From the NCBI RefSeq assembly GCF_013122565.1, contig NZ_CP053258.1: a stretch of DNA of 64,000 nt; one strand, written 5' to 3'. Shown one piece after another: positions 8,601-9,267 of this stretch; position 1 is the stretch's first letter, and every line of letters begins with the position of its first letter. The notes under the pieces were generated by a model. It saw only the letters and a program-made list of their open reading frames with translations. It had not been told where the DNA came from and searched no databases. Source of the DNA: Escherichia coli. GTDB taxonomy: Bacteria > Pseudomonadota > Gammaproteobacteria > Enterobacterales > Enterobacteriaceae. The translations under genes were made by a program, and so were the position numbers.

Positions 8601-8719
8601 ATTTTATACAGCATCTATCGCCGGATGCGATGTTTTGCTGAACACAGTCTGAGCCTGTAATAAACTTGTCATTTCCTGATTTTGATATGCTCATTCCAAC
8701 ATCAGAAGAAGGTTAAATT

Positions 8720-8881
8720 ATGGATGACAAACCATTGCAGGCTCTGGCTAATAAACTCAAAACACCGGCTCAAGAAAGTCAGCGTAATGGCTTCTTCCGA
8801 CTGCAACAGGTGAAGAATAACCAGCCCCGCATTACCGGTATCCCCGTCAACCATCAGCGGCCCCAGCCTGACATCGTCTGA
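8720..8881 (+). CDS. hypothetical small protein (53 aa) inside the cvrA-dadX islet
   Basis: ATG 8720 preceded by AAGGT SD at 6-nt spacing; no recognisable similarity; may be non-coding. Confidence 0.2.
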   Translation: MDDKPLQALANKLKTPAQESQRNGFFRLQQVKNNQPRITGIPVNHQRPQPDIV

Positions 8882-9267
8882 ACATATTCCCCCACGCAAC
8901 CTGCCGCGCTGAAGTAGCCCACAGAATACGCGTTTCAGACTGCTCAGTATCTGTAGTGGCGTTTCATCCGCCTGTAGCACCGGATGCATGAGCGATTTCT
9001 TATAGTTATTCCTTTGCTTAATAACGATTATTTCCGGGTCGTTCGCTCTCGTATTTTCTTAAATACGTCAGAGCGGCCTGGGCCGTAATACAACTTGTTC
9101 AGATCTGTTACGCATGTACCAGACCCGACACGGCATTTCTGACCAGGGAAAAAGTCAACGATGAGTAGTTATATCAGCGCAAATGACGTCCTGTGGCTCC
9201 TTTTCGGTGACCACATTCACGTCTCCTGCGCTGCCAGAGGATATTTATTTCAAGGATACGTAGCATT

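Follow-up and report, generated by a model that had tools for sequence, protein, structure and literature searches.

In IS10, IS50 and IS200, fold-back inhibition shields the ribosome-binding site (RBS) of the transposase gene from activation by read-through transcripts. Insertion sequences (ISs) of the IS256 family are flanked by an 8-9-bp target-site duplication, and astA, the EAST1 gene, lies inside the transposase gene of IS1414. In IS1414, astA is read in the -1 frame of tnp; the element is widespread in E. coli, and copies of it that have decayed by deletion are common (PMC12585946). The RefSeq record of E. coli K-12 MG1655 (NC_000913.3) carries an 'insertion sequence:IS1414 (partial)' at 1240188-1240289 in the spacer between dadX and cvrA, and the gene ymgM (b4740; 1240260-1240463), which specifies a product of 67 aa beginning MDDKQLQAQAAF..., is annotated between the same two genes. 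YmgM is among the small proteins detected by VanOrsdel et al. 2018 (PMC6001520, Table 1).

The window analyzed here is a stretch of 64,000 nt from E. coli contig NZ_CP053258.1, in which dadX and dadA lie on the minus strand and cvrA is separated by a spacer of 667 nt (8601-9267) from an LRR gene, the cargo of the cvrA-dadX islet. An earlier note had reported in this spacer a 53-codon open reading frame on the plus strand (the plus ORF) with a well-spaced AAGGT Shine-Dalgarno (SD) sequence, overlapped by a 95-codon frame on the minus strand (the minus ORF). The coordinates of both frames were confirmed, as were the SD at 8709-8713 and its distance of 6 nt from the ATG at 8720. The features of this end of the islet are these:

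6864-8600, plus strand: cvrA, from the ORF listing and the annotation of homologous E. coli loci
8611..8637, plus strand: terminator-like hairpin and T run of cvrA (sites 8611-8628 and 8616-8632, then TTTTG)
8651..8841, plus strand: decayed 5' end of an IS256-family, IS1414-like IS (the stub), from two collinear blastn matches
8651..8679, plus strand: left terminal inverted repeat, GAGCCTGTA-ATAAACT--TGTCATTTCC against GAGCCTGTACATAGATTTGTGTAATTGCC in mobile copies, from alignments
8709..8722, plus strand: native SD (AAGGT), 6-nt spacer and ATG of the transposase gene, from the alignment; the ymgM start in K-12 is built likewise
8720..8881, plus strand: plus ORF, 53 codons, ATG start, MDDKPLQALANKLKTPAQESQRNGFFRLQQVKNNQPRITGIPVNHQRPQPDIV, from the ORF listing
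8702..8989, minus strand: minus ORF, 95 codons, ATG start, the longest ORF of the spacer, from the ORF listing
8842..9267, plus strand: non-coding DNA specific to the islet, separating the stub from the LRR gene, from single-locus matches
9268..10704, plus strand: LRR gene, 478 aa, islet cargo (Pfam LRR_4, 1.4e-7)

The earlier note recognized no likeness in either frame, which is wrong for the plus ORF. We are highly confident that the plus ORF is the eroded front end of an IS transposase gene and that the minus ORF is a chance antisense frame, the former coming from a dead IS256-family stub closely related to IS1414. The placement at the left end of the islet was apt: the cvrA terminator is the last chromosomal feature before the stub, which begins straight after it at 8651.

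The lead to the IS came from a scan of genomes, one for each species, with a 22-nt pattern over the SD and ATG; it returned two contigs, L018 and L019, both from MAGs. Contig L019 matches the window over 8651-8757 only; its minus strand has this upstream sequence and ATG too, followed by MDDKQLQALANELVKNLKT...RNGYSTKT...FEPQLVKKNQTRI (full continuation MDDKQLQALANELVKNLKTHEDLSQFDRLLKKISGTNSRNGYSTKTVTITDGPMELRTPRDRDGSFEPQLVKKNQTRI), and this continuation matches Pfam PF00872 (Transposase_mut, Mutator family transposase) at 1.7e-10. In 1253 E. coli genomes, the L019 fragment has matches, with at least 80% of the query covered, to features that carry the annotation 'IS256 family transposase'. The bins containing L018 and L019 are MAGs of unrelated organisms, Collinsella sp. 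and Candidatus Ignatzschineria merdigallinarum. Over 2.1 kb, L018 shares 95.9% identity with the islet of the window and is therefore almost certainly E. coli contamination of its bin.

As the reference element we used a near-full-length annotated IS256-family copy of ~1313 bp (L021, 1601-2913), the termini of which pair through arms at 1618-1630 and 2884-2896, that is, the IRL region with the right end. Its two transposase ORFs match PF00872 at 2.5e-17 and 1.1e-84, and the first of them matches NF033543 (IS256 family transposase) at 4.1e-16 with 59 bits, below the cut-off of 150 bits. In blastn comparisons, window positions 8651-8757 correspond to IS nt 1-110 (85.5% identity, E=5e-29) and 8783-8841 to IS nt 322-380 (79.7% identity, E=6e-9); in BLASTP, the 53-aa ORF gives two HSPs with the N-terminus of the IS transposase, each at E=3e-6. 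Both the DNA of the stub and the ORF that starts in it are thus homologous to the IS256 family and IS1414, and the 53-aa sequence alone, too eroded for either profile, matches neither PF00872 nor NF033543. Both collinear pieces recur on plasmids: 734 records match, and 10 or more enterobacterial genera are represented, including Escherichia, Klebsiella, Salmonella, Enterobacter, Shigella and Serratia. In these records the pieces span ~380 nt as against 191 nt in the window.

The stub was mapped by a four-way nucleotide alignment. The segment GAAGGTTAAATTATGGA is identical in the window, L019, L020, L021 and the K-12 copy. Codons 1-10 of the plus ORF correspond to residues 1-10 of the transposase (Tnp), with 9/10 identical, and are followed by a 12-nt deletion; codons 11-15 correspond to Tnp 15-19. 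After a further deletion of ~26 nt, codons 16-21 represent the DNA of Tnp 28-34 read out of frame, and a deletion of ~150 nt then restores the frame, such that codons 22-41 correspond to Tnp 84-103 with 12/20 identical. The similarity to the IS stops at about 8841, and codons 42-53 run into unrelated non-IS DNA. The apparent quality of the plus ORF is explained by this map: its well-spaced SD is that of the transposase gene itself, it looks well initiated because the stub keeps the RBS and ATG of that gene, and it is still open because three deletions, of 12, ~26 and ~150 nt, by accident bring it back into frame. The islet allele L013, a more ancestral one, is less deleted and has 12+13 nt more of the IS, among them the 12 nt that the window lacks after codon 10.

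Together, the internal deletions and the loss of the distal part leave ~190 nt of ~1313 nt, with about 85% of the element lost. Nothing of the ~930 nt beyond IS nt 380 is left in the window, and Tnp past residue ~103 of ~402 was undetectable by blastn and tblastn, so that no complete DDE transposase is present. The left inverted repeat is present and the right one absent: when 8600-11000 and also the entire window were searched for the right end or further fragments of the IS, chance matches of 9-15 nt were all that was returned. Enclosure of the LRR gene by IS ends is thus not demonstrable. Some inverted repeats pair the stub with the LRR gene and were considered as a sign of inverted duplication; their relative order is wrong, and we treated them as chance. 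Without a catalytic domain and a right end the stub cannot transpose, and it encodes no functional transposase and no conserved product. Most probably, an IS256-family element inserted just 3' of the cvrA terminator, oriented towards the LRR gene, and later lost the catalytic part of its transposase together with its right end, about 85% of its length in all. The left terminal repeat and the transposase RBS and ATG have survived this erosion, and past the IS part the plus ORF reads on in unrelated DNA to the first stop.

The lengths of the two ORFs are those expected by chance in this spacer, and length alone is no evidence for either. When 8601-9267 was shuffled 2000 times with dinucleotides preserved, ORFs of 53 codons or more occurred in 89% of the shuffles (69% with ATG starts only) and ORFs of 95 codons or more in 15% (9% with ATG starts only). 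What is non-random is the SD with the ATG and the sequence surrounding them. Searches of Pfam and NCBIfam with both ORFs gave no match at E<=1.

The islet is found in about 834-837 of 5426 complete E. coli genomes. We aligned 16 islets, namely the window and 15 loci covering every length and identity class, which are structural representatives and not a random sample. The plus ORF has 53 codons in seven of them, 65 in one, 50 in two in which the middle is frameshifted, 26 in five and 12 in one; the 26-codon alleles all result from CGA>TGA at codon 27 (R27*). The minus ORF has 95 codons in seven and 78 in three, measures 74, 73, 49, 42 and 34 codons in five others and is absent from one, the disruptions being a 31-32-nt deletion, a 158-nt deletion and indels of 1-8 nt. 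Conservation among homologous islets was the test that the earlier note had proposed for its own reading, and both frames fail it; neither is conserved wherever the LRR gene is present. For the plus ORF the ratio of synonymous to nonsynonymous changes is 13:32, for the minus ORF it is 17:55, and under random change 22-24% would be synonymous; each of the six frames over 8720-8878 has 10-15 synonymous changes of 44-45, with none standing out; the substitution pattern in both ORFs is neutral. Homologues of the plus ORF form 28 protein clusters of 29-86 aa, all from Escherichia, which diverge by frameshift after about residue 31. Depending on the genome, PGAP calls either the plus ORF or a minus ORF, the latter with 50, 51, 78, 95 or 125 aa, and such strand-switching calls are typical of ab initio prediction on non-coding DNA.

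These results bear on the suggestion in the earlier note that one of the frames is a cargo gene, for example a chaperone or regulator for the LRR protein. The plus ORF adjoins the LRR gene in the same orientation, has a good SD and is called a hypothetical protein in many RefSeq genomes. Against a function as islet cargo, it descends from a transposase 5' end, varies between 12 and 65 codons with nonsense and frameshift alleles, accumulates neutral substitutions and belongs to no Pfam or NCBIfam family, chaperone or regulator families included, with homologues limited to Escherichia. Class I type III secretion chaperones are acidic proteins of about 120-160 aa; the plus ORF product, with 53 aa and a net charge of about +4, is unlike them. 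Moreover, the islet allele L016, which is without 8818-8975, keeps an annotated full-length (1437-nt) LRR gene. We consider such a role for the plus ORF extremely improbable. The other option in the note, that both ORFs are noise, stands for the minus ORF and is only half right for the plus ORF, which is a recognizable relic rather than random sequence.

For the minus ORF to be a real gene is equally hard to credit. It is the longest ORF of the spacer, is annotated as WP_001544521.1 (95 aa) in some genomes and retains 95 codons in 7/16 islets, but frames of that length arise in 15% of shuffles, it is broken or shortened in the remaining 9/16, its ratio of 17:55 is the neutral expectation and it matches no family. 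Its 3' part, and hence the C-terminus, is the antisense of the transposase start and ends ...SQSLQWFVIHNLTFF; the matching antisense frame is open in the reference IS as well, for 54 codons, and ends ...SQSLQLFVVHNLTFI. Its 5' part lies in islet-specific non-coding DNA. Lying antisense to the stub and the adjoining spacer, the minus ORF is a frame that is open by chance. We infer that neither ORF specifies a product with a function.

The islet-specific spacer between the stub and the LRR gene (8842-9267) matches 837 E. coli genomes at one place each, always at this locus. Among plasmids it matches four records, all from E. coli and at the same locus, two of which are records of 4.9 Mb; it has no match among phages and no significant similarity to the IS. 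Presumably, it holds the promoter and 5' UTR of the LRR gene. The LRR protein is of the LPX type and has close homologues only in Escherichia/Shigella (437-486 aa, 72-95% aa identity), within which it is unusually polymorphic. With the LRRs of NEL-type (IpaH/SspH-like) E3 ligases, its own LRR region shares 29-36% identity, and a NEL domain is absent from the protein. Within the gene, 9581-9763 consists of 11 overlapping copies of a 12-nt-periodic repeat that encode an acidic stretch with a period of four residues. Some sources label the protein a type III effector.

A different reading concerns the plus ORF as a translated frame. It may be expressed from the relic start as a lineage-specific micro-protein, a sister of YmgM with a function that is absent or incipient; this is compatible with the origin of the frame as an IS stub, the one added claim being a product. 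The plus ORF and YmgM have their first 8 codons, MDDK(P/Q)LQA, in common; from the SD through the spacer to the ATG, the initiation region matches ymgM and the mobile IS copies exactly; and YmgM itself is listed among detected small proteins (PMC6001520, Table 1). Since the same SD and ATG give detectable YmgM in K-12, the plus ORF may well be translated in its turn. The start and first 26 codons are kept in 15/16 islets; more exactly, the SD, the ATG and the first ~26-31 codons are intact in all but one. Variable sites number 15 per 100 nt in 8660-8759 as compared with 26 per 100 nt in 8560-8659, and this lower variability could hint at constraint; within codons 1-31, the ratio of synonymous to nonsynonymous changes is only 7:12. 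On the other side, many alleles have a frameshifted or truncated C-terminal half, R27* being present in 5/16, the substitutions look neutral, a scan of 8400-9400 found no sigma-70-like promoter, and the cvrA terminator lies just upstream; a terminator scan over the same interval returned the sites of that terminator and one weak site on the minus strand only. In addition, a predicted RNA fold buries the SD and the ATG-proximal codons. Weighing these points, we regard both translation of the plus ORF and the existence of such a micro-protein as possible, if rather doubtful, and a function of the product as very improbable.

The predicted fold covers 8645-8760 and has a free energy of -36.8 kcal/mol (z=-5.0 against shuffles). 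It joins the IS terminus to codons 6-10 and UUGUCAUUUCCU to both the SD and GGAUGACAA. The reference IS is predicted to fold with the same architecture, more weakly (z=-2.1), and compensatory changes were seen in 0/24 pairs of the predicted fold-back. If transcripts read through from cvrA, the IS terminus and nt 17-31 would pair with the SD/ATG region and might thereby damp translation, as far as the thermodynamic model can be trusted. The fold is also relevant to the view that the stub matters as DNA or RNA, its IS left end giving a promoter or 5' regulatory sequence to the LRR gene 430 nt downstream. IS ends often carry outward or inward promoters, 8645-8760 folds far better than its shuffles, and parts of the spacer, at 8960-9060 and 9110-9260, are well conserved among the islets; against these points, the promoter scan was negative, an Rfam search of 8300-11000 gave no match at E<=1, the pairs lack compensatory changes, and L016 retains its annotated full-length (1437-nt) LRR gene without 8818-8975. 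A regulatory role of this kind appears unlikely to us. Much bolder would be the idea that an IS1414-type start module is translated wherever it lands, as YmgM in K-12 and as a 53- or 26-codon peptide in the islets, and that the conserved 26-residue N-terminus has gained an LRR-linked function. If true, this would be a case of an IS seeding a de novo gene; we give it very little credence.

The eroded transposase start thus remains our reading of the plus ORF, and the K-12 locus provides the natural comparison. The K-12 spacer is composed of the cvrA terminator, the first ~97 nt of a reversed IS and the last ~70 nt of the LRR gene; positions 4189-4464 of the K-12 locus (L022) are the counterpart of 8600-8661 together with 10633-10704 in the window. 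The stub shares 85-86% identity over the first 102 nt with the K-12 'IS1414 (partial)' as well as with the mobile copy, and it shows neither near-identity to IS1414 nor an astA region. At 85-86% identity to IS1414 copies, we name the stub IS1414-like and not IS1414 proper. The K-12 fragment, by comparison, is identical to the mobile copy at 101/102 positions and 85% identical to the stub of the window, with flanks of 95.6-95.8% identity, and from these values we take it to be an independent, younger insertion and not the inverted stub.

An invertible switch had been considered, in that the K-12 spacer holds the reverse complement of 8651-8749 flanked by inverted repeats of 9-11 nt. It was rejected on three counts: 15/15 sampled islet-bearing E. 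coli have the orientation of the window, the K-12 segment is 99% identical to the mobile IS and only 85% to the segment of the window, and the inverted repeat is intrinsic to the IS (nt 1-11 against nt 88-98). In the simplest account, the K-12-type locus would be a deletion derivative of an islet-bearing ancestor. A second, younger IS1414 would have entered the 3' part of the LRR gene at about window position 10633, reading towards cvrA, and a deletion between direct copies of GAGCCTG would then have removed the LRR gene and the old stub along with the greater part of the new IS. Of the two 7-nt copies, one is the terminus of the old stub; nt 91-97 of the new IS, reverse-complemented, provide the other.

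The locus shows further variation among strains. The islet is a repeated target of mobile DNA, insertions being seen at L017 893-1480 and L023 4215-6661, among others: in one strain, IS1 truncates the spacer at the homologue of window ~9039; in IAI39, a truncated LRR gene is followed by IS629 and a group II intron; and an IS3-family element lies within a K-12-type spacer. In a third structural class (e.g. strain B36), 8608-10859 is wholly deleted. Over 8400-11100 (cvrA-3'/islet/dadX-3'), the best identity to any complete E. coli genome is 96.4%, with K-12-type flanks at ~95.5%, as against 99.1% identity over 11946-15100 (dadA-ycgB) to E. coli strains that include cattle-faeces isolates; in the former interval, the allele of the window is thus rare and locally divergent.

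Annotation of the neighboring cvrA deserves mention. In many RefSeq E. coli genomes PGAP marks it as a pseudogene ('missing C-terminus', 1671 instead of 1737 nt), and PGAP also calls an antisense 'hypothetical protein' of recent accession over its 3' end (e.g. WP_418886597.1 and WP_420106936.1), which corresponds to window 8359-8694 on the minus strand and has homologous positions in L001, L005-L008, L012 and L013. In the alignment, the last 41 nt of cvrA differ by substitutions only. The pseudogene call looks like an annotation artefact tied to the ymgM-type antisense frame. As for the spacer itself, two hypothetical proteins that RefSeq annotates inconsistently by strand drop off the list of candidate cargo, and the left boundary of the cvrA-dadX LRR islet becomes an IS scar.

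Among described systems, IS1414 is the closest in origin. The stub is collinear with annotated IS256-family elements from the left terminus through the upstream region, SD and ATG to codon ~103, and the reference IS has a degenerate -1-frame ORF that starts MPST at the position of astA; the stub differs in having only ~190 of ~1313 nt and in lacking the catalytic domain, the astA region and the right inverted repeat. As in the fold-back of IS10, IS50 and IS200, a pairing of the terminus and nt ~17-31 with the SD and ATG-proximal codons is predicted for both the stub and the reference IS; unlike in those systems, the fold of the stub is a thermodynamic prediction without covariation, and we found no description of fold-back for the IS256 family. 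The K-12 copy is closest in place: it lies in the same chromosomal interval, and its SD and ATG likewise start an ORF with homologous first 8 codons, although it has the opposite orientation, comprises IS nt 1-97 only and abuts the last ~70 nt of the LRR gene. From the start codon of this IS1414 fragment, YmgM reads out antisense into the cvrA 3' end; the plus ORF of the window has its initiation region and not its body. In kind, the locus is nothing new, being an ordinary IS pseudogene scar whose K-12 counterpart is already annotated, and the case of YmgM indicates that IS initiation regions can create ORFs that are translated but probably meaningless.
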